Origin: Candidatus Aminicenantes bacterium
Lineage (GTDB): Bacteria; Acidobacteriota; Aminicenantia; Aminicenantales; Saccharicenantaceae
Assembly (NCBI GenBank): GCA_017999365.1
Contig: JAGNLW010000001.1
Location: 130,239-194,238 of the forward strand
Length of the DNA stretch: 64,000 nucleotides
Reading direction: 5' to 3'
Notes under the pieces: model-generated
The model's input: the letters and a program-made list of their open reading frames with translations, nothing else
What the model was told of the DNA's origin: nothing
Database searches by the model: none
Translations under genes and position numbers: made by a program
In this document: positions 1,747 to 18,072 of the stretch, in pieces
Numbering within the stretch: the stretch's first letter is position 1
Layout of the letters: every line of letters begins with the position of its first letter

Positions 1747-2460
1747 ATGGTCCCGACAAGGAACAGACACAGGTTCGGAAGAGGGAGCACGGCGCTCGCG
1801 GATGTCCTCACGGCGGCCGCATTCGCGGCTTTAACCGCCCTGGCGGTCCTGGTTTGGCCGGCCTCGGCCGTCGCGGGCCCCGGCGACGGGCTTTCGGCCC
1901 GTCGGTCGGTCGGGGCGGTCGTGGACTTCGGCCTGGCCACATACGGCGCCGGAGACTTCGGGCGCGGCCCGCGCTACGGCGCCGGCCTGTGCTTCCGGAC
2001 CGGCCGGCACGCCGCGGTCGAGATCCTCGTCGAGCGCTTCACCGTGCCCGTCGCCGAGGGCGCGGCGGCGACCGAAGACCGGCCCGGGCTGTCGACGGGC
2101 TGACTCGCGAAGACCACGGTCCTCGTCGATCACCACTGGTATCCGTTCTGCCGAGGCCGCGTCCTCCCCTACGCCCTGATCGGGGTGGGATTCGCGATCT
2201 TCGGCTACGCTCCCGACGACGAGGCTTTGGCCGGGCGCCGGGACTTCGTCGATCGCCTGGCCCTCCAGCTCGGCGGCGGTCTCGAGTACCGGCTGACCCC
2301 GCGCCTGGCGGCCTGCGTCAAGGCCCGCTACGATCTCGTCAAGACGTGGCTCGAGGACCTGCCGCGGACCGCCCCCATCCGCGACACCGACCCCTTGGCC
2401 CAGAATATGCTGAACCTCTACGCCCTGGAGCTATCGCTGGGGATCAAGCTCGCTTTTTAG
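1747..2460 (+). pseudogene. Outer-membrane beta-barrel (OmpW/porin-family-like) gene interrupted by an in-frame TGA at 2101-2103
   Basis: Frame-1 ATG 1747 gives a signal peptide and beta-strand-like sequence up to ...GLSTG, then TGA. The same frame continues as LAKTTVLVDHHWYPF...MGFAIFGYAP... and ends in LSLGIKLAF (OMP C-terminal signature). The two pieces, 1747..2103 and 2185..2460, are collinear in one frame. Confidence 0.4.
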
Positions 2461-4635
2461 CTCCGGGCGGTGGTCGAGGACGCGCAGCACGGCCTCGGCC
2501 GCGGCGCCGTTGCCCCAGTCGTAGATCGTGAACACGCCCATGCCTTCGCCCTCGGGGCTGGTCCGGCCGCCGTGCCCGTAGTTCTCCATGGTGAATCCGT
2601 AGTCGGCCGGGCCGAACCACGGGTAGACGCGCTCCCACATGGCCTTGACCTTCGGGTTCTCCGGGCAGTACATCATGACGAAGCCGGCCTCGAGCGCGGC
2701 CAGCCCGCGTTCCCGGAAGGCCGTCTCCCCCGTCGCGTCGGCATAGTCGAGGAAGAGCTCGGCGAACAGGCTCTGGCGCGAGTCGTTCCACTCGCCGTCG
2801 GCGTTCATGACCCCGAAGCCGCCGAGGGCCGGGACGTGGATGAACGGCGGCTGCCAGACCTGCTGGGCCATCGACAGCTCGTCAAGCGTCCGCCGCCCCC
2901 AGTCGAGGTAGAGGGCGCGGCCGGTCGCGCGCCAGGCCGCGAGCAGGGCCTCGGCGGTCCAGAACATCGACAGCGTGTTCTGTTTGTAGAGGGCGTTGCG
3001 CTCGACCGGGCGGTCGAGGTAGCGGTCCTTGCCCCAGGCGCTGCACGACCAGAAGGTCTCGAAATCGAGCCAGCGGCCGCGCGGCACGATGTCCGCGACG
3101 ACTGCGTCGACGGCCCGCAGGGCGGCCGCCCGGAAGCGGGGCTCGCCCGTCATGTCGGCGAGCTTCAACAGGAACGTCGCGCTCAGGCTCGATTCGGGCG
3201 TCCGGTTCATGACCGGACCGGAGGCGTGGGTCTCGGGATGGAGCCAGCCGGGGAAATAGCCGGCCTCGTCCTGGAGGCGCAAGAGGCGCTCGCCGTAGGC
3301 CCGGGCGTAGTCGAGCAGGCGGGCGTCCTTCTCGAGCTCGTCGTGCCAGCGCAGCATGGCGAGGGCGGTCACGCTCATGTCGAGGACGTGGTACCAATCC
3401 GCCGTGATGCCGTGTTCGACGGGCGTGCGGTCGGAGTTCGTCCAGCGGGCCTCGCTCCAGGGCCGGGGCCGGGGCAGCATGCGGCCGTCGACCGGGACCT
3501 CCTCGTTCGGCGTCGCGATGACGGACGGGAACAGGCCGTCGGCGACGGGCGCGGCCAGGGCCAGCTCTTTCGTCATGCGGGCCTTGGCCAGGAGCCCCTC
3601 GTCGAGGGCCGCCCGGGCGTAACGGAACAGGCCCGAGGCGCTCCGCAGGGACGAGAACCAGGCCTGGTTCCAGATCGACAGGGACTCGCGCTGGAACCAC
3701 GGCTCGGGGGAGTTGGGCGACTGGGAGACGTTGACGATGAACTGGGGCGCGCCGACGCGCCGGCCGCCGAGGTCGAACTCCTGCCAGACGAACGGGGCCC
3801 AGCCGCGGAAGGCCCAGTCGTAGGTCCGGCGGACGTAGCTTCGGAGCGGCCCGGGGATGGGCTCGCCCTTCGCGTAGAGCGGGCGGCCCCATCGCGACCA
3901 CAGGAAGGACGCCGCGCCGGCCCAGGGGTCCTTGACGGGCTCGGGGTCGACGGCGGCGGAGATGAAGAAGCCCAATTCGACGCGGCCCGGCCGGAAGACC
4001 TGCCCGGGGACCTTTCTGAAAAGGACGTGCTCCGGGACATCGGTCTTGGACAGGCCGAGGGCCATGGCCCGCTTCGGCGCGTCGAGGTCGAGGAACCAGG
4101 GGTTCTCGGGCCGGGCGCCGACGAGGTCGAGATCGGGGACGACGGTCAGCACGCGCGGGCCGGCCGCGGCGATGAGGGCCGGCGAGCGGAACACGTGTTG
4201 GGCGGCGACGGTACCTTCCTCGGGCGCGAGGTGGGGGGCCCACCACAGCTCGGGCTCGAAGAGGAGGTCGAAGCGGACGGCGAGCTCGTCCTGGGCGGCC
4301 GGGGCTTCGAGGTCCCAGACGAGGCGGACGCGGCGCCAGCCCTTCTCCGGTCCGTCCAGGTCGGCGACGTCGACGCGCGGCGCCCCGGCCGGGCCGAGCG
4401 CGGGCACGGTGAAGGAAACGACGGGCTCGCCGTCGAGGCGCAGCGTGTAGCGGGCTCCGTCGCGGTCGAGGCGCGTCGCGCCGGTCTCGACGGCTCGGCA
4501 GGCCCAGAAGCCGGGAACGGCCGAGAGAAGGACGGCGAGAAGGATAGAAACACAGACGGCACGCGCGGGGTGGGCGTCCACGGAGATGGGTCGGCGGGCG
4601 CGGCGGGCACGGCGTGCGAACCGGGATCCGTTCAT
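2431..4635 (-). CDS. Large secreted hypothetical protein (possible alpha/alpha-toroid glycosidase-like fold; function unknown)
   Basis: ORF 2431..4770, trimmed to the ATG at 4635 that has a GGAGG RBS. The N-terminus MNGSRFARRARRARRP... plus a hydrophobic stretch is signal/TM-like. The protein is 734 aa, non-repetitive and Trp-rich. Confidence 0.6.
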   Translation of the reverse strand: MNGSRFARRARRARRPISVDAHPARAVCVSILLAVLLSAVPGFWACRAVETGATRLDRDGARYTLRLDGEPVVSFTVPALGPAGAPRVDVADLDGPEKGWRRVRLVWDLEAPAAQDELAVRFDLLFEPELWWAPHLAPEEGTVAAQHVFRSPALIAAAGPRVLTVVPDLDLVGARPENPWFLDLDAPKRAMALGLSKTDVPEHVLFRKVPGQVFRPGRVELGFFISAAVDPEPVKDPWAGAASFLWSRWGRPLYAKGEPIPGPLRSYVRRTYDWAFRGWAPFVWQEFDLGGRRVGAPQFIVNVSQSPNSPEPWFQRESLSIWNQAWFSSLRSASGLFRYARAALDEGLLAKARMTKELALAAPVADGLFPSVIATPNEEVPVDGRMLPRPRPWSEARWTNSDRTPVEHGITADWYHVLDMSVTALAMLRWHDELEKDARLLDYARAYGERLLRLQDEAGYFPGWLHPETHASGPVMNRTPESSLSATFLLKLADMTGEPRFRAAALRAVDAVVADIVPRGRWLDFETFWSCSAWGKDRYLDRPVERNALYKQNTLSMFWTAEALLAAWRATGRALYLDWGRRTLDELSMAQQVWQPPFIHVPALGGFGVMNADGEWNDSRQSLFAELFLDYADATGETAFRERGLAALEAGFVMMYCPENPKVKAMWERVYPWFGPADYGFTMENYGHGGRTSPEGEGMGVFTIYDWGNGAAAEAVLRVLDHRPELKSELDPQR

Positions 4636-4754
4636 GGCGGCCTCCTGGCCGAGGAGATAACACAAAAAGGGCGGCAGGGAAATAGGGGGATGGGTCTTGT
4701 GTCCTTCATTTGACGGGACTATAATCCGGCCAACCGGAGTCAGAGGAGGGAGCC

Positions 4755-5390
4755 ATGAGCGCCTGTCCATCCTGTCAGACCCAGAACCCGCCCGGCAGCA
4801 AGTTCTGCGCGGGTTGCGGAGGAGCTCTTCCCAAGATACCCGTTCCCCTGCGTTGCGCCTCCTGCGGAGCCGAGAGCCCGGAGGGCAGCCGCTTCTGCAA
4901 GGGCTGCGGCAAGCCGGTCGGAGCGGGCGCCGCCGGCGGCGGCGGCCAAGGGCGCACGGCCGCGCCCCCCGTCGCCCCCAAGCCCAAGGCCATGGGCGAG
5001 GGTGTCCAGCGCATCAAGACGCTCCTGCTCGCCGGAGCGGGCCTGTACGGCGTGGCCATCTTCCTCATGTATTCCGAACTGGCCCGGATGAAGGCCGCCT
5101 TCGGCCCGTACGCGGGGCAGCTTCCGGGAGCCGACACCCAGTGGTTCCTCATCATCCTCGACGCCTGCCTGGCCGCGGGGAACATCTACGCCTCGACGCT
5201 GGTCGTCAAAGGCGATCTCAAGTACGCCAAGTGGCTGTTCGCGGCGATGGCCGTCCTGGGGCTCATCTTCTTCGTCCGCGGCCTCAAGGGTTCCATCGTC
5301 TTCATCCTGCTCAACGGGGCCGTCATGGCCGCCGGTGCCTACGGCTACCGGCTGGTCGGGCAGGAGCATCGGAAGACCACCCCGGTTTGA
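4755..5390 (+). CDS. Double zinc-ribbon domain membrane protein
   Basis: N-terminus has two CPxC-x8-12-FCxGCG ribbons (CPSCQTQNPPGSKFCAGCG; CASCGAESPEGSRFCKGCG). The C-terminal half has about 4 predicted TM helices. GGAGGGAG RBS is present. Confidence 0.7.
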   Translation: MSACPSCQTQNPPGSKFCAGCGGALPKIPVPLRCASCGAESPEGSRFCKGCGKPVGAGAAGGGGQGRTAAPPVAPKPKAMGEGVQRIKTLLLAGAGLYGVAIFLMYSELARMKAAFGPYAGQLPGADTQWFLIILDACLAAGNIYASTLVVKGDLKYAKWLFAAMAVLGLIFFVRGLKGSIVFILLNGAVMAAGAYGYRLVGQEHRKTTPV

Positions 5391-5403
5391 CCAAGGAGAC
5401 GCC

Positions 5404-6162
5404 ATGATCGCATGCCCGTCCTGCGCCTTCGAGAATCCCGACGACGGCAAGTTCTGCACCGGCTGCGGGGCCAAACTGACGCCCCCGCCTCCCCCGCCCG
5501 CGGCTCCGGAAGCGGCCGCCGGGCCCGGCGGACCGTCGCGATTTTGCAACGAGTGCGGGGCCAGGGTCCCGGCGGATTCCAGGTTCTGCACGGCCTGCGG
5601 ACGGACGACCGAGCCCACCTCCCCGGGGGCCGGCCAGGAGGCCGGCGCGGGCGGGCGGGCCGGCGGCGCCGCTTCGGCCTCCGCCGCGGCCTATCTCGCC
5701 GCGCTCGACGAACGCCTGGCCACCGCCGGCTATGAGAAGATCGACGCGCCGGCGGTGCTCGGCCTCGACCGATTCCTCCGCCGCAAGAAGTTCGAGCTGA
5801 TGCAGATCGGTATGGTCACGGCGGTCTGCGGCGTCAAGGTCCTCGACGGGCCGGCGACGCCGTCCTACGTCAAGGATTACAGCAAGGCCGTCTTCGACGC
5901 CGCCGTCGGCAAGAAGGGCTTTCTGGCGCGCAACGCCGTCCAGCAGCTCCTCGTCTATCCCGTCCTGGTCGTCCCTTCGGCCGAGGCGGGCGTGGCCGAG
6001 TTCCTGAGCTCCCATTGGCCGAAGCACTGGATGGCCTTCGAGTTCCCTGTCGTCGCGGCGATCGGGACCGGGGAGCTCCTGCTCCACCGGGGCACGCCGG
6101 TCTGGCAGGCGCTGTCCCACGGGGGGTTCCGCAAGCAGGCCGAGAGCCTGTTCGCGGTCTAG
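5404..6162 (+). CDS. Double zinc-ribbon domain protein (paralogous N-terminus to the upstream gene)
   Basis: Start at ATG 5404 (AAGGAGAC RBS), inside track ORF 5335..6162. Ribbons are CPSCAFENPDDGKFCTGCG and CNECGARVPADSRFCTACG, followed by a Pro-rich linker and a ~170-aa C-terminal domain. Confidence 0.7.
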   Translation: MIACPSCAFENPDDGKFCTGCGAKLTPPPPPPAAPEAAAGPGGPSRFCNECGARVPADSRFCTACGRTTEPTSPGAGQEAGAGGRAGGAASASAAAYLAALDERLATAGYEKIDAPAVLGLDRFLRRKKFELMQIGMVTAVCGVKVLDGPATPSYVKDYSKAVFDAAVGKKGFLARNAVQQLLVYPVLVVPSAEAGVAEFLSSHWPKHWMAFEFPVVAAIGTGELLLHRGTPVWQALSHGGFRKQAESLFAV

Positions 6163-6163
6163 G

Positions 6164-6763
6164 TCAGCTGTCTGAGTCGCCCGAGGACGACGAGCCGGTG
6201 TCGTCGCTCCCCGAACCGGAAGGCTCGTCCGCGTCGGAGGACGAGGAAGAGGACGAGCCGCCCGCGTCATAGTCAGCGCCGGACGAAAGCCCGTCATCGT
6301 CGTCGGACAGCTCCGCGTCGTCGTCCGCCGCGCCGTGGTCGACGAGATGGCCGTCGGCGGGATCGACGACCTGGTCTGCGCCGACCGTGTCGGCCGACGA
6401 TCCGCGTCCCGTGGTGTCGACCGTGTCGATGCGGCCGTCGCCGTCGATGTCGTTGGCGACGCTCTCCGAATAGCCGTCTTGGTCGATGTCGCCGTAATAG
6501 GTGCCGGTGCTCGTCTTGCCGAGCTGGACCTCGACGTCGCCGAGCCCGTCCCCGTCCCGGTCGACCTTGGTCCACAGGCTGGAGCCGTCGCCGCCGCCGC
6601 GGTCCTCGATCTCGACGATGCGGGGCACGACCTCGGGCGGTCCCTCGCCGGCGCCGTCGGCGCTGTCGTCCGCGTCCGTCTCCTCCTCGACCTCCGTCAC
6701 CTTGAGATCGTCCACGGCCGGCGGCTCCTCACGGTCGCGGCCGGTGTCGTCGGGTTCGGCCAT
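6164..6763 (-). CDS. Highly acidic Asp/Ser-rich protein with DxDxDG calcium-binding-like (thrombospondin type-3-like) repeats
   Basis: 199-aa ORF directly downstream of, and co-oriented with, the M48 protease gene. It has repeated DRDGDGLGD / DIDGDGRID motifs and a poly-Ser C-terminus. It has no signal peptide, and the only RBS-like sequence (GAGGAG) abuts the ATG, which is sub-optimal, hence moderate confidence. Confidence 0.4.
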   Translation of the reverse strand: MAEPDDTGRDREEPPAVDDLKVTEVEEETDADDSADGAGEGPPEVVPRIVEIEDRGGGDGSSLWTKVDRDGDGLGDVEVQLGKTSTGTYYGDIDQDGYSESVANDIDGDGRIDTVDTTGRGSSADTVGADQVVDPADGHLVDHGAADDDAELSDDDDGLSSGADYDAGGSSSSSSSDADEPSGSGSDDTGSSSSGDSDS

Positions 6764-6786
6764 GTCGCCCTCCTCGGGGAAAGCCC

Positions 6787-7980
6787 CTACGACTTGGGAT
6801 CGATGCTATCGAGCCTGAGGCGGAACACGCCGCCGCAGGACTTGCAGGGGATGTCGAGCCAGGGTTCGGCGGGCCGGGCGACGAGACGGAACGTGAACGG
6901 GGCCCGGCAGGTCGGGCAGGTGCCCTCGAGGAGGCGGACCTTCGCCCCGGGCGGCGGTGCGGACGGGACGGGACCCGGCGCTTTTTTCGGGGGCCGGAGC
7001 TTCTTCAGGTAGCCCTTCTCGTCGAACAGGCCGTCGAGCGGGGCGCCGCTTCCGGACTCCACCTTCTGCCGGAGGGCCTCGTACGGCGGCGAGGCGGCGA
7101 AGTCGCGCAGCTCGACGAGGCGGCTGCCGAGGTAGGGCGTGGCCGAGGTCATCATCTGGCTGACCTTGGTCATGGTCGGATCCTGGGTCTCGGCCTGGCG
7201 GATCCAGTCGTCGATGTCCATCTCGGCCAGCTCGCGGCGCGAGCGGAGATGGAGCAGGAAGACGGCCCGCTTGGCGACGTCGAAGCCTCCGACGGCCAGC
7301 AGGGCGGCCCGGTCGGCGGTCATGTCGGCCACGCGCATCCAATTGGAGACGGCCGACTCGACGCCGCCTTCGATGACCTTGAGGGGATTGGAGAGGAGTC
7401 CGACGACGCCCTCGGCCATGAGGTTGGACCGCTGTTGACCGACCAGGAACATGCTGGCCGTCGTCCACAGGGCGTGCTGGCTGACGAGGTGGCCGATCTC
7501 GTGGCCGAGGACGAACAGGAGCTCCTCGTCGTTGAGGAAGCGGGGCAGGAAGGCGCCGATGTTGACGAAGGCGTCGTCGTCCGTGCCGTAGGTCGCGGAC
7601 TGGTAGCCGCGGTCGAGCTCGACGTAGAAGGCGGGCAGACGGGGGGCGCCGAGGCGCCGGGCGGCCAGGCGGCCGAGCTCGAGGACGCGGGGATACTGCC
7701 TGTCCGTGGCCAGGATGCTGTTGAAGGTCGATTCGTACCAGGGCTTGCCGATCTTGCGCGACAGGCTCTCGGCCGATTTGCGCAGGACGAGCGAGCCGCG
7801 GAGCATCTGGTTCATCCGCTGCATCGAGGGGTGCTCGAAGTCGCGGGGGTCGAGGGAGAAGGGCGCGGCGGACGGGCCGGGCGGTGGGGCGGCGCCCGCG
7901 GCCGAGGCGAGAGGGGCGCCGCACTGGCCGCAGAAGCGGCCGTGGTCGGGAACGGGAGAGCCGCAGGCGTTGCAGAACAT
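6787..7980 (-). CDS. M48-family zinc metalloprotease (HExxH) flanked by N- and C-terminal zinc-ribbon motifs
   Basis: The active-site motif is LGHEIGHLVSQH. The N-terminus has MFCNACGSPVPDHGRFCGQCG and the C-terminus has CPTCRAPF...CKSCGG, both zinc-ribbon-like. Confidence 0.75.
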   Translation of the reverse strand: MFCNACGSPVPDHGRFCGQCGAPLASAAGAAPPPGPSAAPFSLDPRDFEHPSMQRMNQMLRGSLVLRKSAESLSRKIGKPWYESTFNSILATDRQYPRVLELGRLAARRLGAPRLPAFYVELDRGYQSATYGTDDDAFVNIGAFLPRFLNDEELLFVLGHEIGHLVSQHALWTTASMFLVGQQRSNLMAEGVVGLLSNPLKVIEGGVESAVSNWMRVADMTADRAALLAVGGFDVAKRAVFLLHLRSRRELAEMDIDDWIRQAETQDPTMTKVSQMMTSATPYLGSRLVELRDFAASPPYEALRQKVESGSGAPLDGLFDEKGYLKKLRPPKKAPGPVPSAPPPGAKVRLLEGTCPTCRAPFTFRLVARPAEPWLDIPCKSCGGVFRLRLDSIDPKS

Positions 7981-8148
7981 GTGACCCCGGTGTTACCCGC
8001 TGAATTAGCACACGCGGCAAGGGCAAGTCAAGGCGGGAAGCCGGGAGACGAGGGCGGCACGTTCGGAAAAATGGGCGATCGGGTCTTGTGTCCCCGTTTT
8101 GGCGGGGATAGAATAGCCGGGAACGAACGTTCCGATCGGAGGCTCTCC

Positions 8149-10185
8149 ATGTCCAGGACAAAGACCAACCCGTTCCGTTCCGGGGCGCTCCTCGCTCTTG
8201 TCGTCGCGACGGCGGCGGTGACTGCCTGTAGCCAAGGCGCCGGCGGCAAGGCCCAGGCGCTGTCAGTCGCGTCGCCCGACGGCAGCCTCGCGCTGACGCT
8301 GGCGACGGCCGCCAAACCGAGGCCCTACGCCGAGGGCGAGCGGCTCTATTACCGCGTGACCTACAAGGGCGCGCCGGTCCTCGTCGATTCGCCGCTCGGC
8401 CTCGATCTGCTCGGGGCCCCGGCCCTCGAGCGCGATTTCGAGGTCGTGGGGACGGAAGCGCGGTCGAACGACACGACCTGGGAGAACGCCTTCGGGGCCC
8501 TGCGGACGGTCCCGGACAGGTACAACGAGCTCGTCGTGTCGCTGCGCGAAAAGAACGCGCCGGGGCGGCGGCTCGACGTCGTGCTGCGGGCCTACGACGA
8601 GGGCGTCGCGTTCCGCTACGTCCTGCCGAAGCAGGAGGCCGTCGGCGAGTACGCCCTGGCGGCGGAGTCGACCGGATTCTACTTCGCCGGCGAGACGCGG
8701 GCCCTGGCGCTCGACCTGGGACGCTGGGACACGAGCAACGAGGGGCCGTACGCGTGGACGCCGCTCGCGGCGCTCAAGCCGGCGTCGCTCGTCCACACGC
8801 CGCTTCTCGTCGAGATGCCGGGCGCCGGGTTATGGGCGGCCCTGCTCGAGGCCGACCTGACCGATTACGCGGGGCTCTATGTGGCGGGCGCGGCGGGCGT
8901 GCCCAACGGGCTCGCGGCCCGGCTGGCCGTGCCGCCGCGACGGGCGCTCGACCGGGCGGTCGTGGGGACCGCGCCGCTGCGGACGCCGTGGCGCGTCCTG
9001 ATGGTCGGGACGGACCCGGCCCGGTTCATCGAGCGGAACTACCTCGTGCTCAACCTGAGCGAGCCCTGCGCCGTCGGCGACACATCGTGGATCAAGCCGG
9101 GCAGGGCGGCCTGGGATTGGTGGTCCGGGAGCACCGCGACGGGCGTGAGCTTCAAGCCGGGCATGAACACGGCGACGATGAAGCACTACATCGACTTCGC
9201 GGCCAGGCACGGCCTCGAGTACATGCTCGTCGACGCCGGTTGGGCCCCGATGTCGGAGGACGGCCGGATCGAGGACATCCTGAAGTACCGGCCCGAAGTC
9301 GACATCCCGGCGATCATCGCTTACGGGAAGGCCAAGGGCGTCGAGACCCTGCTTTGGGTCGAGTGGCGGGCCCTCGACCGGGCCATGGACGAGGCCATGG
9401 CGCTCTTCGAGAGGTGGGGCGCGGCGGGCATCAAGGTCGACTACATGAACCGCGACGATCAGGAGATGGTCGCCTATTACGAGAAGGTCTGCCGCAAGGC
9501 CGCCGAGCACCGGCTGACGGTCGATTTCCACGGCGCCTACAAGCCGACGGGGCTGCGGCGGACCTATCCGAACCTGCTGACGCGCGAGGGCGTCATGGGC
9601 CTGGAGTACAGCAAGTGGAGCGAATCCATCACCCCGGAGCACGACGTCAACATCGCCTTCACGCGCATGCTGGCCGGGCCGATGGATTTCACGCCGGGCG
9701 GTTTCCGCAACGCGGCCCGGGGGAAGTTCGAGGCCCGGGACATCGCGCCGATGACGCAGGGGACGCGGGCCCATCAACTGGCCATGTACGTCGTCTACGA
9801 GAGCCCGCTGGTCATGGTCTCCGACTACCCGGAGGCGTACGAAGGGCAGCCGGGGATGGCCTTCATCGAACGCGTCCCGACGGTCTGGGACGAAACGCGC
9901 GTGCTGGCCGGCAAGCCGGGCGAGTTCGTGGTCGTCGCCAGACGTAAGGGCGCCGAGTGGTACGTCGGCGGCCTGACGAACTGGGACGCGCGGGAGGTCG
10001 AGATCGGGTTGGGGTTCCTGGGTGCGGGCGCTTTCGAGGCCGAGATCTTCGCCGACGGTCCCGATGCGGCGACGGAGGGGACAAGTCTGGCGGTCTCGAA
10101 GAAAGCGGTCGCCGCCGCCGACAAGCTGACCCTGCGGCTCGCCCCCGGCGGCGGATTCGCCCTCGGGGTCAGACCCCAGCTTTGA
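8149..10185 (+). CDS. Glycoside hydrolase family 97 (alpha-glucosidase/alpha-galactosidase, SusB-like) lipoprotein
   Basis: Start ATG 8149 after GGAGG. Lipoprotein signal ...AAVTAC. Conserved GH97 core (e.g. ...AGIKVDYMNRDDQEMVAYYEKV..., ...HGAYKPTGLRRTYPN...). About 680 aa, typical size. Confidence 0.85.
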   Translation: MSRTKTNPFRSGALLALVVATAAVTACSQGAGGKAQALSVASPDGSLALTLATAAKPRPYAEGERLYYRVTYKGAPVLVDSPLGLDLLGAPALERDFEVVGTEARSNDTTWENAFGALRTVPDRYNELVVSLREKNAPGRRLDVVLRAYDEGVAFRYVLPKQEAVGEYALAAESTGFYFAGETRALALDLGRWDTSNEGPYAWTPLAALKPASLVHTPLLVEMPGAGLWAALLEADLTDYAGLYVAGAAGVPNGLAARLAVPPRRALDRAVVGTAPLRTPWRVLMVGTDPARFIERNYLVLNLSEPCAVGDTSWIKPGRAAWDWWSGSTATGVSFKPGMNTATMKHYIDFAARHGLEYMLVDAGWAPMSEDGRIEDILKYRPEVDIPAIIAYGKAKGVETLLWVEWRALDRAMDEAMALFERWGAAGIKVDYMNRDDQEMVAYYEKVCRKAAEHRLTVDFHGAYKPTGLRRTYPNLLTREGVMGLEYSKWSESITPEHDVNIAFTRMLAGPMDFTPGGFRNAARGKFEARDIAPMTQGTRAHQLAMYVVYESPLVMVSDYPEAYEGQPGMAFIERVPTVWDETRVLAGKPGEFVVVARRKGAEWYVGGLTNWDAREVEIGLGFLGAGAFEAEIFADGPDAATEGTSLAVSKKAVAAADKLTLRLAPGGGFALGVRPQL

Positions 10186-10433: not shown

Positions 10434-12161
10434 ATGACAAAACATGCGATCGCGGTCGGGGGCATCGCCCTCGCTCTGATCATCGTTTCCGTCCCGTCCC
10501 CAGCCGCCGCCACAGACGCCGACATCAAGGCCGCCATCGCGCCGGCCGCGACCGCCAAGCTCGACAGCTGCACGGTCATCGGGGCCGGCCGCCTGGCCAC
10601 CGTCGACGGCTCGGTCATCACCTCGCACTCGGATTGCTGCAGCGAGTGCCGCATCCAGGTCGTCCCCGGCCGGACCTTTCCCAAAGGCGCCATGGCCGAC
10701 GTCCACTGGGGCATGGTCTACTTCGGGGCCGAGGACGACCGCCGCGCCCTGCCCCTCGGCGACTTCGGCAAGGTCATCGGCCGCATCCCCCAGGCCGAGC
10801 GGACCTTCGCCTACTTCCACACCGGCTACTCGCAGATGAACGAGCGCCAGCTGGCCATCGGCGAGAGCACCTGCTCCCAGCGCGCCGAGCTCGACGTCCC
10901 CTACGTCGAGGGCCTGACCCGCCAGATCATGACCGTCGAGCAGGCTCAGGTCTTCGCCCTGCAGCGCTGCTCAACGGCCCGCGAGGCCGTCAAGCTCATC
11001 GGCTCGCTCGTCGAGACCTACGGCTTCCTCCCCTCCTGCGGCGGCTCCGAGGCTCTCTGCGTCGCCGACCCGCGCGAGCTCTGGACGATGGAGATCTGCA
11101 GCGTCGGGCCCGAATGGGCGCCCGGGAGCGGCAAGCCCGGCGCCATCTGGGTGGCCCGCCGCGTCCCCGACGACCACGTCGTCGTCATCGCCAACTATTT
11201 CCGCATCCGGGAGATCGACCTCAAGAGCCCCGACACCCTGGCCTCGCCGAACGTCGTCCGGGAAGCCGTCGACCGCGGCTGGTACGATCCCAAGAGTGGC
11301 CGGCCGTTCGTCTGGCAGGAGGCCTACGCCCCGCCCGTCCGCGAGGGCAACCTCAGCCGGATGTGGCTCGTCACCAGCACCCTGGCCCCGAACCTCAAAG
11401 CCTGGCCGAAGCGGGCCCTCAAGGACGCCGCCGGGCCAGGGACGATCTACGCCCAGCCGTTCGAAGGCGCCGCGTTCTACCCCTGGTCGTTCAAGCCGGA
11501 GCGCAAGATCGGCGTCCGGGACGTCATCGCCTTCCAGCGCTCGGCCTTCGAGGAGACGGTCTACGACATGACCTGGGACCCGGCCTGGATGGTCCCGGCC
11601 GGGGGCGGGCGCATGGAGAAAAGCCCGATGGCCTCGCCCTTCATCTCGGCCGAGATGGAGAAGGTCCTGCGCGTCCGGCACCACCGGACGATCGCCACCC
11701 AGGGCTACGGGATGGTCGCCCAGTTGCGGTCCTGGCTCCCGGACGCGGTCGGCGGCATCTACTGGTTCTACGTCGACAACCCTTCCGTCAGCCCCTATGT
11801 CCCGGTCTACGCCGGCGTGACCGACGTCTCCCCGTTCTACAAGACGTACGACTTCCGCGAGTTCAGCGAGGATTCGGCGCGCTGGGCCGTGGACTTCGTC
11901 GAGAAGCTTATGCTGCTGCGCTGGCAGCCGGCCATGCGCGACGTCCGGGCCGCCCGCGACCCCGTCGAGGCCGCGTTCTTCGACGAGCAGGCCGCCGTGG
12001 ATGCCAAGGTCGCGGCGCTCCTGGAGGGGGGCGCCGGCGGGCGCGCCGCCGCCGCGGACTACCTGACCAGCCTGACGGTCGAGCGGATGGAGAAGCTCGT
12101 GGCCCTCTACCGCTCGCTCCGCAAGACCTTGCTCGCGAAGTACTCCGGCGACGGCGTCTGA
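10434..12161 (+). CDS. Peptidase family C69 dipeptidase (secreted)
   Basis: Signal peptide, then the DSCTVIGAG motif where the Cys is the nucleophile after signal cleavage. Size and family-wide motifs fit C69. A strong AAGGAGGAGGAG RBS precedes the start. Confidence 0.85.
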   Translation: MTKHAIAVGGIALALIIVSVPSPAAATDADIKAAIAPAATAKLDSCTVIGAGRLATVDGSVITSHSDCCSECRIQVVPGRTFPKGAMADVHWGMVYFGAEDDRRALPLGDFGKVIGRIPQAERTFAYFHTGYSQMNERQLAIGESTCSQRAELDVPYVEGLTRQIMTVEQAQVFALQRCSTAREAVKLIGSLVETYGFLPSCGGSEALCVADPRELWTMEICSVGPEWAPGSGKPGAIWVARRVPDDHVVVIANYFRIREIDLKSPDTLASPNVVREAVDRGWYDPKSGRPFVWQEAYAPPVREGNLSRMWLVTSTLAPNLKAWPKRALKDAAGPGTIYAQPFEGAAFYPWSFKPERKIGVRDVIAFQRSAFEETVYDMTWDPAWMVPAGGGRMEKSPMASPFISAEMEKVLRVRHHRTIATQGYGMVAQLRSWLPDAVGGIYWFYVDNPSVSPYVPVYAGVTDVSPFYKTYDFREFSEDSARWAVDFVEKLMLLRWQPAMRDVRAARDPVEAAFFDEQAAVDAKVAALLEGGAGGRAAAADYLTSLTVERMEKLVALYRSLRKTLLAKYSGDGV

Positions 12162-12209: not shown

Positions 12210-12992
12210 TTAGCGCCCGAAGCCTTTGACCTTCTTGTAGCCGGCCGGCAGGTCGTAGTGGCCCGCGGGGGCGGCCTTCTCCGTGCATTCGAGGAGCTCG
12301 GTCGTGGACTTCATCTCCTGGCCCATGACCTTGGCCACGGTCGTCTGGTAGACGACGACGCCCTTGATCTTCTTCATCTCGGCCAGGATCTTGTCGAAAC
12401 CGGGCATCGAGGCCATCATGCCGTTGGCCATGGCGAAGGCCATGGTGTAGTCGACCTTGATGTCCTCGGTGGCCCAGGCGTCGCCGCTGGTCTTGCCCAT
12501 GCCGCCCATGTCGATCTCGAGGGTGTAGCGGCGGGCGTTCCAGCTGCCGATCTTCTTGGTCTCGCCGGTGTCGGTGACCTTGGCCGACATCCCGCCCATG
12601 AGGCCCTTCATCATCCCGGCCATGGCCTTGGCCTGGGCCTTGTCCTCCTCGTCCCCGCCGGCCTCGTCGGCCGCCGCGTCGAACATCTTGCCGAAATCGA
12701 GGGGCATCTCGGAGTACGACTTCTTGTTGTGGTCGATCATGTAGAGCATCTTCTTGTCGGCTTGGAAGATCATCGAGGTGTTGGCCCCCTCCTGGTCCGT
12801 GCGGGCCTTGTTGTCGCCCATCCAGAAGACCATGATCTCGTCCTTGGCCGGCTGGGACTGGCCCATCATCGTGAAGGCGTCGGTGTGGGTCTTGTTCTTC
12901 ATGTAGACGTCGGCCCGGGCCTGCGCCGTCGAGAGGACGAGACAGGCAAGGACGGCGAGAAAGGCGATGCGGATCAGGCGGGATGATCTCAT
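12210..12992 (-). CDS. Secreted Met/Lys-rich protein of unknown function (DUF4412-like, uncertain)
   Basis: Clear signal peptide (MRSSRLIRIAFLAVLACLVLSTAQA). Native-looking composition (K/M/D-rich, unlike the R-rich antisense junk). Met-rich segment AMAGMMKGLMGGM. Confidence 0.6.
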   Translation of the reverse strand: MRSSRLIRIAFLAVLACLVLSTAQARADVYMKNKTHTDAFTMMGQSQPAKDEIMVFWMGDNKARTDQEGANTSMIFQADKKMLYMIDHNKKSYSEMPLDFGKMFDAAADEAGGDEEDKAQAKAMAGMMKGLMGGMSAKVTDTGETKKIGSWNARRYTLEIDMGGMGKTSGDAWATEDIKVDYTMAFAMANGMMASMPGFDKILAEMKKIKGVVVYQTTVAKVMGQEMKSTTELLECTEKAAPAGHYDLPAGYKKVKGFGR

Positions 12993-13317: not shown

Positions 13318-13908
13318 CTAGTAACTGTTCCAATGGAGGACGGCCGACAGGGGGCGCTTGGGGACATGAAGGCGGCCGGCTTCGTCCTTCCAGTAGCGGC
13401 AGCTGTCGGCCATGACCTCGGCCGCCGGCTCCTCGGCCGGATACCCCAGCGCCAGGACGCTGTCGATGCGGTACCCGTCGGGCACGCCAAGCACGCCCTT
13501 GAGCTTCTCGCGGTCGATCGACAGCAGCCAGCAGGCCCCGACCCCCTCGGCCAGCGCCGTCAGGATCATATTCTCCATGGCCGCGCCGACGTCGTACTCG
13601 AACATCTTTTCGCGCAGCATCGAGTCGACGAGCGTCACGACGTAGGCCGCCGGTTCCTCCCCCGTCTTCGGGTCCCCCGCCGGCGCGATGTAGGCCGCCC
13701 ACTTGAGGCACGGGAAGACCTCGGCCGCCCGCGCCGGATCGTCCACCACGACGAAGGAGAGCGGCTGGACGTTGGCCGCCGAAGGCGCCAGCCGGGCCGT
13801 CTCGACCAGCCGCGTCAGCAGCTCCCGCGGCACCGGCCCCGGCCGGAACCGGCGGATGGTCCGCCGCGCCACCGCGAGATCGTAAACGTTCTGTCCGTTC
13901 TGACCCAT
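13318..13908 (-). CDS. Nitroreductase-family protein
   Basis: The nitroreductase fold signature is present (...VARRTIRRFRP...LAPSAANVQPLSFVVV...). Start trimmed to ATG 13908, which has an AAGGAG RBS (track ORF extends to 13962). Confidence 0.8.
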   Translation of the reverse strand: MGQNGQNVYDLAVARRTIRRFRPGPVPRELLTRLVETARLAPSAANVQPLSFVVVDDPARAAEVFPCLKWAAYIAPAGDPKTGEEPAAYVVTLVDSMLREKMFEYDVGAAMENMILTALAEGVGACWLLSIDREKLKGVLGVPDGYRIDSVLALGYPAEEPAAEVMADSCRYWKDEAGRLHVPKRPLSAVLHWNSY

Positions 13909-14050
13909 TGCGCGACTCCTTTCCCGCCGAAGCGACCGGGTTTCCTCATTATTATAAGCCATTCCGCCGTCGCCATCGCCATGGCCTTCGCCGGATCCGT
14001 CCCCGCCCGGCCGCGGCGCCGAGCCCCTCGTCGCCCGCGGCCCTCGGGTC

Positions 14051-15268
14051 TCAACGCCCTCCCGAGGCCATCCCCGCCCTCGCCCGCCCCTCCGTCACCG
14101 GGGCCTTGGCCATGAACACGGCCGTCGCGCCCAGCAACAGCAGCGCGGCGAACCGGTACATCCAGCGGTATCCCGCCGCGTCCGAGATCCACCCGAACAC
14201 CGGCGAGCCCAATCCCATACCGACGTCGAAGAGCGAGTTGTACAGGCTGATGGCCAGTCCTTTGTTCTCCCGTCCCAGGAAATCGATGATATAGGTGCTC
14301 AGGGCCGGGAAGATGAGCCCCTGCCCGATGCCGCCGACGAACCCCGTGACCACCAGGAGCGGCAGGCTGCGGACCTGGGCCAGGACGAACAGGTTCCCGG
14401 CGATGATGAGGGCCGCCGGCCAGATGACCGTCTTCCTCCCGCGCCTGTCCGACAGGTCGGACAGGCGGACGCGCGTCAATATGGCCGCCAGCGAGAAGAC
14501 CAGGAAGAACGTCCCCACCCTGGCGATGCCGATCGAATGCCCGAACACGGCCACGAAGTAGATCATGGCCCCGCGGATGGCGCCGTGGAAGACGGGCATG
14601 CCGGCGATGATGGCCGCCAGCGCCCAGGGCACGGCCCGCAGCGCCGGCAGCCCGGCCGGCCGCCGCCCGCCCTCCCCGCCCCCCCCGTCCTCAGGCCGGC
14701 ACGATCCTTCGCGCGCCAGCAACAGGCAGACCAGCGCCGCCGCCAGGAACGCCGCGCTGACGTTGTACAGCCGTCCCGGCCCTCCTGCCCCGCGCAACAA
14801 CTCCTCGGCCACGAGCGGCCCGACGGCGTTGGCCACCAGCCCGGCGACACCGATGACGCCCATGGTCTTGGCCAACCGATCGGCCGGGGCCAGGTCCGAG
14901 CACAGGGCGATCGTCGCCGTCATGCTCACTCCCCAGCCGACTCCCGCCACTGCCCGCAGCGCCAGCGGCAGCCACCCGGCGTCCCTCACGAGATGGAAGA
15001 GCGGCGTCGTCACGAGCAGCAGCGCCGCCCCGGCGACGGCGAGCCGCTTCCCTCCCCGCAGGTCGATCATCCGCCCGAACAGCGGCCGGATGGCGATGGC
15101 CACGACGCTGTAGACGCCCATGATCAGGCCGATGCGGCCCGGGCTCGAACCGAACGCCTCGAGGACGACCGGGAAGAGGAAGAAGAGCGAGACGGCCATG
15201 AACAGGAAGAAGAAGCCGGCCAGTGCCAGCAGGAAGTCCCGGCTGGTGAACGACCGCGGTGCGCTCAT
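14051..15268 (-). CDS. MFS transporter (12 TM), probable sugar-acid/hexuronate-related permease
   Basis: The real gene is the 405-aa C-terminal portion of the 1332-aa artefactual ORF 14051..18049. Start MSAPRSFTSRDFLLALAGFFF... Typical MFS loop motif G(R/K)xxD(R)xGR(K/R) appears twice. Confidence 0.8.
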   Translation of the reverse strand: MSAPRSFTSRDFLLALAGFFFLFMAVSLFFLFPVVLEAFGSSPGRIGLIMGVYSVVAIAIRPLFGRMIDLRGGKRLAVAGAALLLVTTPLFHLVRDAGWLPLALRAVAGVGWGVSMTATIALCSDLAPADRLAKTMGVIGVAGLVANAVGPLVAEELLRGAGGPGRLYNVSAAFLAAALVCLLLAREGSCRPEDGGGGEGGRRPAGLPALRAVPWALAAIIAGMPVFHGAIRGAMIYFVAVFGHSIGIARVGTFFLVFSLAAILTRVRLSDLSDRRGRKTVIWPAALIIAGNLFVLAQVRSLPLLVVTGFVGGIGQGLIFPALSTYIIDFLGRENKGLAISLYNSLFDVGMGLGSPVFGWISDAAGYRWMYRFAALLLLGATAVFMAKAPVTEGRARAGMASGGR

Positions 15269-15300
15269 GAGACCGATCCGATCCGCCGCTCTCCGCCCCG

Positions 15301-15942
15301 CTAGGCCGGTCCGCCGAGCGACTCGACCAGCCGCCGGGCCCGCGCCTCGATCGCCGCCCAGTCCCCCGCCTCGACGGCCTTGGCGTCGACGAGGGCCGCG
15401 CCCAACCCGACGCACGCCGCGCCCGCCGCCAGGAAGTCGCGGGCGTTCTCGACCGTCACCCCGCCGGTCGGCATGAGCCGGACCTCCGGCAGCGGCCCGC
15501 GCATGTCGCGCACGAACTGCGGACCGAGCGAGGTCGCCGGGAAGACCTTGACGAGGTCCGCCCCGGCCCGCCAGGCCGCGACGATCTCGGTCGGCGTGAA
15601 GGCCCCCGGCGCGACGACCACGCCCGCCTCCCGGCAGGCGGCCACCGTGTCGCGGTCGAAGACGGGCGAGACGACAAAGTCGGCCCCGGCCGCGATGACC
15701 TCCGCGGCCGTCGCCGCGTCGAGCACGGTACCGGCCCCGACGAGCGCGCCCTCCGCCTTCGCCCGGGCCTGCTCGCGGATGATGCCGACCGCGCCCGGCA
15801 CGGTCATGGTCACCTCGACGGCCTTCACGCCGCCCCGGCCGAGCGCCGCCGCCACCGCGGCCAGCCGGTCCGCGTCCTTCATCCGGATGACGGCCACGGC
15901 CCGCCCGGCCAGGAGCCGCCCGAGGACCTCGTCTTTGGTCAT
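15301..15942 (-). CDS. eda: 2-dehydro-3-deoxy-phosphogluconate (KDPG) / 4-hydroxy-2-oxoglutarate aldolase
   Basis: 213 aa with the KDPG aldolase family pattern (...GGVKAVEVTMTVPGA...GAGTVL...FVVSP...EIVAAWRAGADLVKVFPA...). Confidence 0.85.
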   Translation of the reverse strand: MTKDEVLGRLLAGRAVAVIRMKDADRLAAVAAALGRGGVKAVEVTMTVPGAVGIIREQARAKAEGALVGAGTVLDAATAAEVIAAGADFVVSPVFDRDTVAACREAGVVVAPGAFTPTEIVAAWRAGADLVKVFPATSLGPQFVRDMRGPLPEVRLMPTGGVTVENARDFLAAGAACVGLGAALVDAKAVEAGDWAAIEARARRLVESLGGPA

Positions 15943-15957
15943 GTTCGCCCTCTCGCC

Positions 15958-16992
15958 CTACCTCAGGACCCGCCCGGACCGGTCGCCCTTGACCAGCGCC
16001 GCGATGTCCCTCTCCGTCGACAGGTTGAAGTCGCCGGGGATACCATGCTTGAGGGCCGCCGCGGCCACGGCGAATTCCAGGGCCTCGGCGTCCGTCCCGC
16101 CTCCCGGCCGCGTCAGCCCGTGGATGAGCCCGGCGGCGAAAGCGTCGCCCGTCCCGATGCGGTCGACGACCCGGCGGATCTCGTGGATGGGCCCGGTCAG
16201 GAACTCCGTCCGGTTCCGCAACACGGCCGTCCAGCGGTTCCAGTCGGCGCTGTAGCTCTCGCGCAGCGTCAGCGCGATCCGCGCCACGTTGGGGAACGCG
16301 GCCATGACCTCGGCCGTCAGGTCGGCATAGAGCCGGGAATCGAGGCGCCCTCCCGAGACCTCGGGGGCCGGCCCGATACCGAGCGAACGCTGGCAGTCCT
16401 CCTCGTTGCCCGTGACCAGGTCGGCCAGGGCGGCCAGCTCGCGCATGACCTCGGGCGCCGGACGGCCGTACGTCCAGAGCTTGGACCGGTAGTTGAGGTC
16501 GAGCGAGACCGTCATCTTCCGCGCCCGCGCCGCCCGGGCCGCCTCCGTCGTCAGGGCCGCGGCCGCGGCGCTGATCGCCGGCGTGATGCCGGTCAGGTGG
16601 AGCCAATCCATGCCGGCCAGGGCCGCCTCCCAATCGACCGCCCCCGGCCCGGCCTCGGCCACGCCCGAGCCCTCGCGGTCGTAGAAGACCTGGGACGGCC
16701 GGGCCCCGGAGCCCGTCTCGGAATAATAGATCCCCAGGCGCCGTCCGCCCCGGACGACGGCCCGGGTGTCGACGCCGTATCGCCGCAGCTCCCGCAGGGC
16801 CGCCTCTCCCGCCGGGTTCGCCGGCACCACCGAGATCCAGCGAGACCTGTGGCCGAGCAGGGCCAACGACACGGCCACGTTGGCCTCGCCGCCGCCGAAG
16901 CCGGCCCGCAGGACGGGCGACTGGAAGAGGAGCTCCCCGTCCGGCGGCGAAAGCCGGAGCATGATCTCGCCGAAGGTCGCGATGTTGGCCAT
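15958..16992 (-). CDS. kdgK: 2-dehydro-3-deoxygluconokinase (PfkB family)
   Basis: 344 aa. N-terminal FGEIMLRLSP and C-terminal IDRIGTGDAFAAGLIHGL (PfkB anion-hole/GD motif). Sits immediately upstream of eda in the same orientation. Confidence 0.85.
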   Translation of the reverse strand: MANIATFGEIMLRLSPPDGELLFQSPVLRAGFGGGEANVAVSLALLGHRSRWISVVPANPAGEAALRELRRYGVDTRAVVRGGRRLGIYYSETGSGARPSQVFYDREGSGVAEAGPGAVDWEAALAGMDWLHLTGITPAISAAAAALTTEAARAARARKMTVSLDLNYRSKLWTYGRPAPEVMRELAALADLVTGNEEDCQRSLGIGPAPEVSGGRLDSRLYADLTAEVMAAFPNVARIALTLRESYSADWNRWTAVLRNRTEFLTGPIHEIRRVVDRIGTGDAFAAGLIHGLTRPGGGTDAEALEFAVAAAALKHGIPGDFNLSTERDIAALVKGDRSGRVLR

Positions 16993-17143
16993 GCCGCACT
17001 CTCCTACGGCCTAAGATAGCACAGGCGGCGCCCGCCCCCAAAACCGGAAAATGGGGACTTTGACGTCCCCGTTTCGCACTCCCTTGAAAAGGGCCGGGAA
17101 CGGAGTACAATACGCCCGAAATTCCCGCGGAGAACATGGCCCC

Positions 17144-18004
17144 ATGGACAAGCTCAAGGACCGCATCAAGAACGCCCTTTTCATCCTCGTCGGCTGCGCC
17201 GTCATGGGACTGGCCTACGCCATGTTCCTCATCCCCCACCACTTCGTGCCCGGCGGCGTCTCGGGCGTGGCCATGATCGCGAATTACTTCTCCAAGCTGC
17301 CCGTCGGCCTGCTCATCATGGTCCTCAACGTGCCCATCTTCCTGCTCGGCCTCAAGACCATGGGCAAGAAGTACGTCGTCAACAGCCTGGCCGGCATGGT
17401 CGTCTCCTCGGTCTTCATCGACCTCTTCTACGAGGTCGTCAAAGTCCCCTCGGCCACCGACAACGCCGTCCTGGCCTCGATCTACGGCGGCGTCATGCTC
17501 GGCGTCGGGCTGGGCATCGTCTTCCGCGGCCGGGCCTCGACCGGCGGCTCGGACATCATCGGCATGGTCCTCAGCAAGTACACCGGCATGTCGCTCGGCT
17601 ACGGCATCATGGTCACGGACTTCCTGGTCATCTCGGCCTCCGGCTTCGCCCTGCGCTCCCTCGAGGCCCCGCTCTACGGCTACATCGTCCTGTTCCTGTC
17701 GACCAAGGTCATCGACATGGTCCTCGAGGGCTGGAACTACTCCAAGCTCGTCCTCATCACCTCGACCCGGACCCAGGAGATCGCGGATTACATCCTCCAC
17801 GGCCTCGACCGCAGCGGCACGGCCCTGCGCTCCCGCTCGCTCTACCTCAACCGCGAGGGCGAGATCATCATGACCGTCATCCACCGCAAGCAGCTGGCCG
17901 ACCTGCGGACCCACGTCCGCCGCATCGACCCCGAGGCCTTCGTCGTCATCAACGACACCTACGACGTCCTCGGCAAGGGCTTCAAGTCCCACCTCATCAC
18001 CTGA
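17144..18004 (+). CDS. YitT-family membrane protein (DUF161 + DUF2179)
   Basis: The multi-TM N-terminal domain has the GGxSG motif of the YitT/UPF0750 family (FVPGGVSGVAMIANY), followed by a C-terminal DUF2179-like soluble domain. Start taken at ATG 17144. Confidence 0.75.
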   Translation: MDKLKDRIKNALFILVGCAVMGLAYAMFLIPHHFVPGGVSGVAMIANYFSKLPVGLLIMVLNVPIFLLGLKTMGKKYVVNSLAGMVVSSVFIDLFYEVVKVPSATDNAVLASIYGGVMLGVGLGIVFRGRASTGGSDIIGMVLSKYTGMSLGYGIMVTDFLVISASGFALRSLEAPLYGYIVLFLSTKVIDMVLEGWNYSKLVLITSTRTQEIADYILHGLDRSGTALRSRSLYLNREGEIIMTVIHRKQLADLRTHVRRIDPEAFVVINDTYDVLGKGFKSHLIT

Positions 18005-18072
18005 AGCGCCCTTTGGCCCCGGAAATGGAGTAAAATGGGTCCCGGACACCGCCCCGGAAAGGAGCCCCGACC

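Follow-up and report, generated by a model that had tools for sequence, protein, structure and literature searches.

A four-gene cassette of a soluble M48 protease, zinc-ribbon proteins and an acidic protein is inherited as a block in uncultured sediment bacteria

Introduction

The rhomboid protease YqgP (GluP) of Bacillus subtilis has an N-terminal domain with a restriction endonuclease (REase)-like fold that binds divalent cations and mediates the Mn2+/Zn2+-dependent cleavage of MgtE, on which YqgP works together with FtsH (PMC7231995). GltJ and ZitP are membrane proteins in which a zinc ribbon and the linker after it work as a switch for protein docking (PMC11135422), and in conflict systems the EAD7 domain is described as recruiting effectors (PMC7159879). 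Here we describe a cassette of four genes, named A to D, which shows likenesses to all of these. It lies at positions 4755 to 7980 of a contig stretch of Candidatus Aminicenantes bacterium (GCA_017999365.1, contig JAGNLW010000001.1, positions 130,239 to 194,238), and we call this whole stretch of 64,000 nucleotides the window. The genes, and the active-site motif of the protease, are the following.

Gene A, positions 4755 to 5390, forward strand: 211 residues; double zinc ribbon, then a C-terminal domain with four transmembrane (TM) segments (Pfam, motif scan, alignment of 17 orthologues)
Gene B, positions 5404 to 6162, forward strand: 252 residues; double zinc ribbon, disordered linker, soluble REase-like domain
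Gene C, positions 6164 to 6763, reverse strand: 199 residues, isoelectric point 4.05; beta-rich domain, three DxDxDG loops, Asp/Ser/Gly-rich tail
Gene D, positions 6787 to 7980, reverse strand: 397 residues; M48 core with a zinc ribbon at each end (Pfam, motifs, alignment)
HEIGH catalytic and zinc-binding motif of D, residues 160 to 164, positions 7489 to 7503, reverse strand (motif scan, alignment)

The window has a G+C content of about 70% and is therefore rich in spurious overlapping open reading frames (ORFs). The four ORFs that a sequence-only reading of this DNA had singled out nevertheless proved to be genuine genes with exactly these boundaries. Shine-Dalgarno sequences precede A (GGAGG), B (AAGGAG) and C (GAGGAGG, 6 nucleotides before the ATG), and the length given for B counts from the ATG that has AAGGAG in front of it.

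Each of the closest described systems matches one part of the cassette and differs in others. YqgP is a rhomboid serine intramembrane protease, has its sensor fused to the protease and lacks an acidic partner protein, whereas the cassette encodes a soluble M48 metalloprotease, a separate candidate sensor (B) that bears zinc ribbons, and the acidic protein C. Within the M48 family (HtpX, Ste24, Oma1, BepA, LoiP), D has the common HExxH and downstream RxxD/ExxAD motifs. Unlike HtpX, Ste24 and Oma1 it lacks TM helices, unlike BepA and LoiP it lacks a signal peptide or a TPR domain, and it is set apart from these enzymes by the ribbons at both ends and by a conserved, family-specific GKPWYES region. 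With GltJ of Myxococcus and ZitP of Caulobacter (PMC11135422) the cassette shares the N-terminal four-cysteine ribbon, the flexible linker and a membrane-embedded C-terminal part. However, the ribbons of A and B are of the DZR/Zn_Ribbon_1 type and doubled, the membrane part has four TM segments and belongs to an unnamed family, and the cassette has neither a GYF domain nor linked motility or polarity genes.

The remaining comparisons follow the same pattern. Site-2 protease systems (RseP, family M50, with zinc-binding anti-sigma factors) also bring together genes for a metalloprotease, membrane proteins and zinc-binding proteins, but D belongs to another family with another topology, and the cassette lacks a sigma factor and the zinc-associated anti-sigma (ZAS) motif. 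C resembles the proteins with calcium-binding DxDxDG loops (EF-hand-like loops that occur in diverse folds) in its conserved D-x-D/N-x-D-G loops, three to a domain; it differs from them in having no named family and no export signal, and its metal binding is a prediction. Finally, some proteins outside the cassette join the domain family of the B C-terminus to TIR_2 or EAD7, which recalls the EAD/TIR conflict systems (PMC7159879), whereas TIR, EAD, NTPase, vWA and the other core components of these systems are missing from the cassette, which has no PADLOC match either. We found no description of such a module in literature searches (M48 with zinc ribbon, PF12773). We place the cassette among accessory regulated-proteolysis modules that have adaptor or sensor proteins; it belongs to no system described so far. 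This agrees with the sequence-only reading, which could not assign it to one: Pfam, NCBIfam, PADLOC, sequences of the Protein Data Bank (PDB) and the literature gave no characterised orthologue.

Results

The four genes are linked in unrelated genomic contexts

A scan of 185,579 species genomes gave only 16 loci, all of them in metagenome-assembled genomes (MAGs) of Aminicenantes/Acidobacteriota, Syntrophaceae, Geobacteraceae, Deltaproteobacteria and Thiobacillus. The homologues of D form 130 clusters (41-89% identity) from MAGs labelled Aminicenantes, Geobacter and Thiobacillus. We searched all fetched loci with hidden Markov models of the TM domain of A, the C-terminal domain of B, the two domains of C, and D, and took as informative the 17 distinct D-anchored loci with enough flanking DNA. 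All four families were present in 16 of the 17, between unrelated flanks (TldD/PmbA and MetK; Rrf2, hemerythrin and NrdD; DnaE and TlyA; CorA and thiolase) and in four gene orders.

Convergent, D>C> <B<A: the window and nine other loci
Divergent, <B<A D>C>: L007 and L020; L009 has the same layout, and its contig ends inside the position of B
Tandem, D>C>A>B: L008, L010, L024 and L026
<A D>C>B>: L025

Across these orders, D-C and A-B are nearly always adjacent pairs separated by 12-50 nucleotides (23 for D-C and 13 for A-B in the window), and C always lies directly downstream of D. The clustering of the four genes is far beyond chance. The sequence-only reading had proposed a linked module of protease, membrane protein and zinc-ribbon partners, and had staked it beforehand on co-conservation in related genomes and on the lack of unrelated, well-characterised orthologues; the genes are co-conserved, no characterised orthologue turned up, and the proposal survives.

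Some loci have peculiarities of their own. In L018, a gene for a 660-residue secreted protein with FG-GAP repeats (positions 2653-4635) stands between C and B, and this B has a single zinc ribbon. L016 and L023, from other MFD MAGs, have frameshifts inside C, B, A or D that look like assembly errors rather than pseudogenes. In L015 (positions 7150-7330), D and C run together into one ORF, which was considered as Rosetta-stone evidence and rejected, since the junction keeps AAGGAGG and an out-of-frame TAG; the apparent fusion is probably a one-nucleotide indel in a long-read MAG.

Three proteobacterial-type loci, L008 (6143-6226), L024 (111-194) and L026 (3014-3268), have tRNA genes at 0.7-3 kb upstream of the cassette, a possible hint of island integration sites. 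We did not find the cassette in phage records or viral contigs, and plasmid searches returned only distant M48 genes (24-30% identity) in unrelated contexts. One of these encodes a soluble M48 protein beside an HNH endonuclease gene and a Swt1-family HEPN gene on a Thermus thermophilus plasmid (L030, NZ_AP025611.1); another, also soluble, lies downstream of an Hsp70-family gene on a Tsukamurella plasmid (L031). Both are 24-29% identical to D, in alignments that begin at D residue 42. Soluble M48 proteases may recur in conflict-type islands.

The cassette is gained and lost as a block

To the left of the cassette lies a gene of 734 residues (positions 2431-4635, reverse strand), which served as the anchor of a metagenome scan that gave 80 loci. 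At its N-terminus the product is rich in Arg (MNGSRFARRARRARR), with a hydrophobic stretch thereafter; it matches no Pfam family and is widespread, with 208 metagenome relatives. The cassette was complete beside the anchor in two of the 80 loci, namely the two nearest (99% and 97% identity; one of them, L035, on a contig of 2.27 Mb), and none of the four genes was found beside the anchor in the other 78. In a tree of the anchor protein, loci with the cassette (the window, L035, L036, L011, L001, L012, L003 and L016) interleave with loci that lack it (at least L037, L045, L052, L039, L042, L044 and L043).

Nucleotide alignments locate the empty sites. About 190 bp in L037 correspond to 4.06 kb in L001, and 490 bp in L045 correspond to 6.2 kb in L003, where NadE and the cassette are both present. 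L016, with the cassette, and L044, with NadE in its place, have flanks that are 94-95% identical. No partial cassette was found among the anchor loci. The indels being clean and partial cassettes missing, the cassette is an accessory element that is gained and lost as a block, and its inheritance is all-or-none. More broadly, the gap between the anchor and the GH97 gene is a variable hotspot, where close relatives may have the cassette, NadE, both of them or neither.

The cassette genes diverge about as slowly as their metabolic neighbours: between the window and L001, identity is 78% for D, 82% for the anchor and 66% for the GH97 protein (positions 8149-10185, so identified by its Pfam match). 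We detected no compositional anomaly.

Borders, transcription units and neighbours

The cassette is bordered by two copies of a direct repeat.

Left border, first 46-nucleotide repeat copy, positions 4680 to 4725, forward strand (repeat search)
Right border, second 46-nucleotide repeat copy, positions 8069 to 8114, forward strand (repeat search)

The repeat is imperfect (72% identity), with an exact core of 13 nucleotides, GGGTCTTGTGTCC. Both copies hold the promoter-like motif TTGTGTCC-N15-TAKAAT, which ends in TATAAT on the left and TAGAAT on the right, and both have an internal inverted repeat (CCCCG...CGGGG / GTCC...GGAC). The left copy lies 30 nucleotides upstream of A and the right one 35 nucleotides upstream of the GH97 gene. 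The motif has two matches in the 64 kb, against 0.1 expected, and occurs also upstream of A in L001 and L012. A simple sigma-70 scan reported no promoter, and the motif matches only three of the six positions of the -35 hexamer. We infer a promoter role for TTGTGTCC-N15-TATAAT, and the border repeat could be a duplicated promoter or operator, or the footprint of an insertion.

The cassette consists of two small transcription units, A to B and D to C. B and C are convergent, with stop codons one nucleotide apart (positions 6160-6166). Since no terminator-like hairpin was found anywhere in the cassette, the two units must read into each other. An Rfam search of positions 4300-8400 and of ten related loci returned tRNAs only and no riboswitch.

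The wider neighbourhood in the window is syntenic with the Aminicenantes loci L001 and L003. Besides the anchor and the GH97 gene, it includes genes for a DUF3943 protein (560-1834), a C69 peptidase (10434-12161), a DUF4412 protein (12210-12992) and a nitroreductase (13318-13962), and an ORF with a major facilitator superfamily transporter (14051-18049). Pfam searches of the window neighbours revealed no sigma factor or regulator near the cassette.

D is a predicted soluble M48 protease with zinc ribbons at both ends

Residues 130-293 of D match Peptidase_M48 (PF01435) with 38.9 bits, above the cut-off of 20.3, and the D protein of L008 reaches 43.6 bits. The HEIGH motif starts at residue 160, and pairs of CxxC motifs occur near the N-terminus (residues 3 and 17) and near the C-terminus (residues 355 and 379). 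The N-terminal pair forms a single ribbon, which at 22.5 bits falls just below the Zn_Ribbon_1 cut-off of 25, and the C-terminal ribbon is MJ0042-like (CPTC...CKSC). The architecture that the sequence-only reading had described, an HExxH protease of the M48 family flanked by ribbons, is thereby borne out. Among relatives of D, the number of ribbons ranges from one to four at the N-terminus and from one to two, of the MJ0042 type, at the C-terminus (matches to Zn_ribbon_4/5).

In an alignment of 21 homologues, H160, E161, H164, A222-D223-R224 and the four C-terminal cysteines are invariant, as is the family-specific GKPWYES stretch. The predicted third zinc ligand is D218, in RVAD(218)MTAD, and is replaced by Glu in some relatives, including that of L008. 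We take this stretch to be the M48 third-ligand motif, RxxExxAD. D shows no convincing TM segment and no signal peptide, its only hydrophobic stretch being weak and amphipathic, and its product is hence expected to be soluble and cytoplasmic. Together, these features mark D as a zinc metalloprotease of family M48 that is soluble, cytoplasmic and catalytically competent. It is not an HtpX or LoiP equivalog, as it scores 11.8-13 bits against NCBIfam cut-offs of 275-369. Searches of PDB sequences with D, and with profiles of B and D, returned generic zinc ribbons only; the C-terminal ribbon of D weakly matches the ribbon of GltJ (7zok, E 0.31).

A, B and D open with zinc ribbons of one type

A and B both match Pfam DZR (PF12773), with 42.5 and 44.2 bits respectively against a gathering cut-off of 27.3. 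The CxxC motifs are at residues 4, 18, 34 and 48 of A, where the double ribbon covers residues 1-53 (motif scan), and at residues 4, 18, 48 and 62 of B, where the ribbons cover residues 1-67. D opens with a ribbon of the same type (DZR/Zn_Ribbon_1), and in all three proteins a flexible Pro/Ala/Gly linker follows it. Read from the sequences, these ribbons are of the rubredoxin-type CxxC...CxxC "prefix" kind; in NCBIfam, the type matches the N-terminal region of a Ser/Thr-phosphatase model and the model of a "4-Cys prefix" kinase domain. Their copy number varies from one to four among orthologues.

A and B had been taken for tandem paralogues with double ribbons. This holds for the ribbon head, where they are 42% identical over 67 residues (E 4e-12), and fails beyond it, their C-terminal parts being unrelated. 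The expected division into a membrane protein and a soluble one is clear: the motif scan finds four hydrophobic segments in A (residues 86-198), joined to the ribbons by a Gly/Ala/Pro linker, and none in B. A is thus predicted to be a small inner-membrane protein with four TM segments. Across the 17 aligned orthologues, conservation in this TM part is sparse and comes down to an almost invariant Asp of TM2 and to a KG loop. DUF4870, which the sequence-only reading had named as a family to search for, did not match this part, nor did any other Pfam or NCBIfam family.

The C-terminal domain of B has a non-canonical REase-like fold

The C-terminal domain of B covers residues ~92-252 (positions 5677-6159), and B is predicted to be cytoplasmic. 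Its structural model shows an alpha-beta-beta-beta-alpha-beta-alpha-beta-beta-beta-alpha domain, which contains the alpha-beta-beta-beta-alpha-beta core of the PD-(D/E)xK REase-like fold. The closest solved structure, at the level of the fold, is the cation-sensing N-terminal domain of YqgP, and the fold is common also to the nucleases NucC, Cap4, Can2, HamA and CdiA-CT. Yet the catalytic PD...(D/E)xK positions are not conserved across 52 members of the family. D122 and K145 of B are conserved in the cassette subfamily only, and G143 replaces the acidic residue of (D/E)xK. The motifs that the family does conserve are PKHWxAxEFPV and TPxWG..YY.GFR. Because the catalytic positions are unconserved, other motifs are kept and no sequence relation to YqgP was detected, the domain is a non-canonical REase-fold module, probably not a nuclease, and most likely binds a ligand, a metal or a partner rather than cutting DNA.

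The family of this domain is large, with about 293 clusters (50% identity) at E <= 1e-3 in a profile search of the full library, and no Pfam or NCBIfam model covers it. Its members (P0301-P0448) are mostly stand-alone proteins of ~165 residues. Others are fused to zinc ribbons, TIR_2 (P0334 and P0376), EAD7, an Xre-type helix-turn-helix (HTH_3), RDD, GYF_2 or SHOCT. The neighbourhoods of one stand-alone, one TIR-fused and one zinc-ribbon-fused homologue were uninformative.

C is a short form of a larger acidic family

C has 58 Asp and Glu residues out of 199 (29%), and its DxDxDG loops are DRDGDG at residue 68, DIDQDG at 92 and DIDGDG at 105. In 34 homologues, the Asp and Gly columns of these loops are either invariant or conserved to 90% or more. 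The description of a 199-residue acidic protein with such loops is therefore accurate, with the qualification that this protein is a lineage-specific short form. Relatives of C typically have 330-430 residues, with three DxDGDG loops in an N-terminal domain and three more loops in a C-terminal one, a variable acidic linker between the two and a variable Asp/Ser/Gly tail, hence six loops at full length. The C of the window consists of the C-terminal domain and the tail only. The same short form is found in L011 and in clusters P0287-P0293, so it is a feature of the clade and not an artefact.

No Pfam or NCBIfam family matches C, and no export signal was detected in it. A full-length relative was modelled as two confident beta-rich domains, for which we found no significant relative among solved structures.

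Discussion

We tentatively favour, with less than even confidence, the view that the four genes, an accessory set that is inherited together, work as a single unit and encode a zinc-ribbon-assembled, membrane-proximal proteolytic switch. In its favour are the linkage of the genes and their all-or-none inheritance, the protease motifs of D, the ribbons common to A, B and D, the unconserved nuclease positions of B, the conserved loops of C, a divergence about as slow as that of the flanking metabolic genes, and neighbourhoods free of recognisable defence genes. The shared ribbons would dock D and B onto A at the cytoplasmic face of the membrane, a role for which the ribbon-and-linker switches of GltJ and ZitP are precedents, and B would supply the sensing of a ligand or a metal. 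C, co-translated with D, would probably bind Ca2+ or another divalent cation and could be a regulator or a substrate of D. The output would be a signal-dependent proteolysis near the membrane, with a divalent cation or an envelope signal as its cue.

Several observations weigh against this reading. L018 has D, C and B with no A nearby, and the loss of the N-terminal half of C in the lineage of the window indicates that this half is dispensable. Calcium-type loops are unusual in a protein that lacks an export signal. The model of B reached only a moderate pLDDT of 71.9, the four other models had values near 60, and the profile of the B family (52 members) aligned to residues 1-176 of YqgP with a probability of 0.2% and an E-value of 0.3 in hhalign. 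Every carrier organism is uncultured. The gains and losses between close relatives, the patchy spread across phyla and the fusions to TIR, EAD7 and helix-turn-helix domains fit a conflict system at least as well.

In such an anti-phage or inter-genomic conflict system, the ribbons or B would sense the invader. The M48 protease would then be activated, or C would be removed in its role of decoy or inhibitor, and the abortive infection would be carried out by the 4-TM protein or by the REase-like domain of B. Whole-block presence or absence between flanks that are 94-95% identical, repeated gain and loss on the anchor tree, and a patchy occurrence in MAGs of Acidobacteriota, Desulfobacterota-type and Betaproteobacteria (16 matches in 185,579 species genomes) are what this explanation would lead one to expect. 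The fusions of the B family to TIR (P0334, P0376), EAD7 and Xre-type helix-turn-helix domains, the fold that B shares with NucC, Cap4, Can2, HamA and CdiA-CT, the distant soluble M48 genes beside HNH and HEPN genes on Thermus plasmids, and the tRNA genes just upstream in L008, L024 and L026 point in the same direction. However, neither the four cassette proteins nor two full-length relatives of C matched any family of PADLOC-DB v2 at E <= 1, the cassette was missing from phage records and viral contigs, and about eight distinct neighbourhoods hold housekeeping genes and no restriction, toxin-antitoxin, CRISPR or other defence genes. The nuclease residues of B are unconserved, the cassette is as conserved as the neighbouring metabolic genes and compositionally normal, and NadE, a housekeeping gene, is gained and lost at the same hotspot. 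We regard a conflict system as the main and a serious rival, though less likely than not.

Were the cassette instead a device for the buffering or homeostasis of divalent cations (Ca2+/Mn2+/Zn2+), C would be a cytoplasmic cation buffer of high capacity, A a cation-conducting membrane protein, B the metal sensor, and D would degrade C or A to reset the system. The loops of C (six at full length) and its polyacidic tail, the proven Mn2+/Zn2+ sensor domain as closest fold to B, and the near-invariant Asp inside TM2 of A suit this idea, as do CorA in L010, FUR in L003, Rrf2 and hemerythrin in L007 and TrkH in L009, all encoded nearby. But no metal-related neighbour is conserved between loci, Rfam revealed no metal riboswitch upstream, the TM domain of A is poorly conserved for a channel, and the idea is largely a narrower version of the proteolytic switch; we consider it decidedly unlikely. 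A role in the handling of nucleic acids, for example in the repair of DNA-protein crosslinks in the manner of SprT/Wss1, would have the ribbons bind DNA, D remove adducts, B act as a nuclease and C mimic DNA. Zinc ribbons can indeed bind nucleic acids, B has an REase fold, and C is as extremely acidic as known DNA mimics. Such a role is nonetheless very improbable given a dedicated 4-TM membrane protein in the unit, the unconserved REase residues, a protease of family M48 and not SprT/WLM, and the ordered calcium-type loops of C, which differ from a DNA-like charge pattern. The likeness to site-2 protease signalling that the sequence-only reading had drawn, a regulated intramembrane proteolysis with zinc-ribbon anti-sigma factors, has in its favour that the genes for a protease, a membrane protein and zinc-binding proteins lie together. 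It fails for want of a sigma factor, an M50 protease and a PADLOC match: D is an M48 protease without a TM helix, A and B lack the HxxxCxxC ZAS motif, and no sigma factor gene adjoins the module in the flanks of the window or in ~20 related loci. Of the explanations considered here, this is the one to which we give the least credence.

It is also conceivable, and on the whole unlikely, that the cassette represents a previously unrecognised kind of system. This could be a new anti-phage or abortive-infection system, in which a soluble M48 protease is combined with a membrane effector that bears zinc ribbons, a sensor with an inactivated REase fold, and an acidic protein as decoy or inhibitor. 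Or it could be a bacterial cytoplasmic device for proteolytic signalling that responds to Ca2+ or other divalent cations. Either way, the ribbons would be a dedicated assembly code among three different proteins.

Three of the four families are unnamed in Pfam and NCBIfam: the 4-TM domain of A, the REase-like domain of B and the whole of C. In uncultured anaerobes of several phyla, the genes behave strictly as an all-or-none unit and are under purifying selection. If it is a defence system, it would add a new protease-based type. Should the ribbons serve as an assembly code that brings together protease, sensor and membrane anchor, this would give a function to the very common bacterial signalling architecture of the "zinc-ribbon prefix". 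The family of B deserves its own family definition, and may tie the orphan sensor domain of YqgP to a much wider group.

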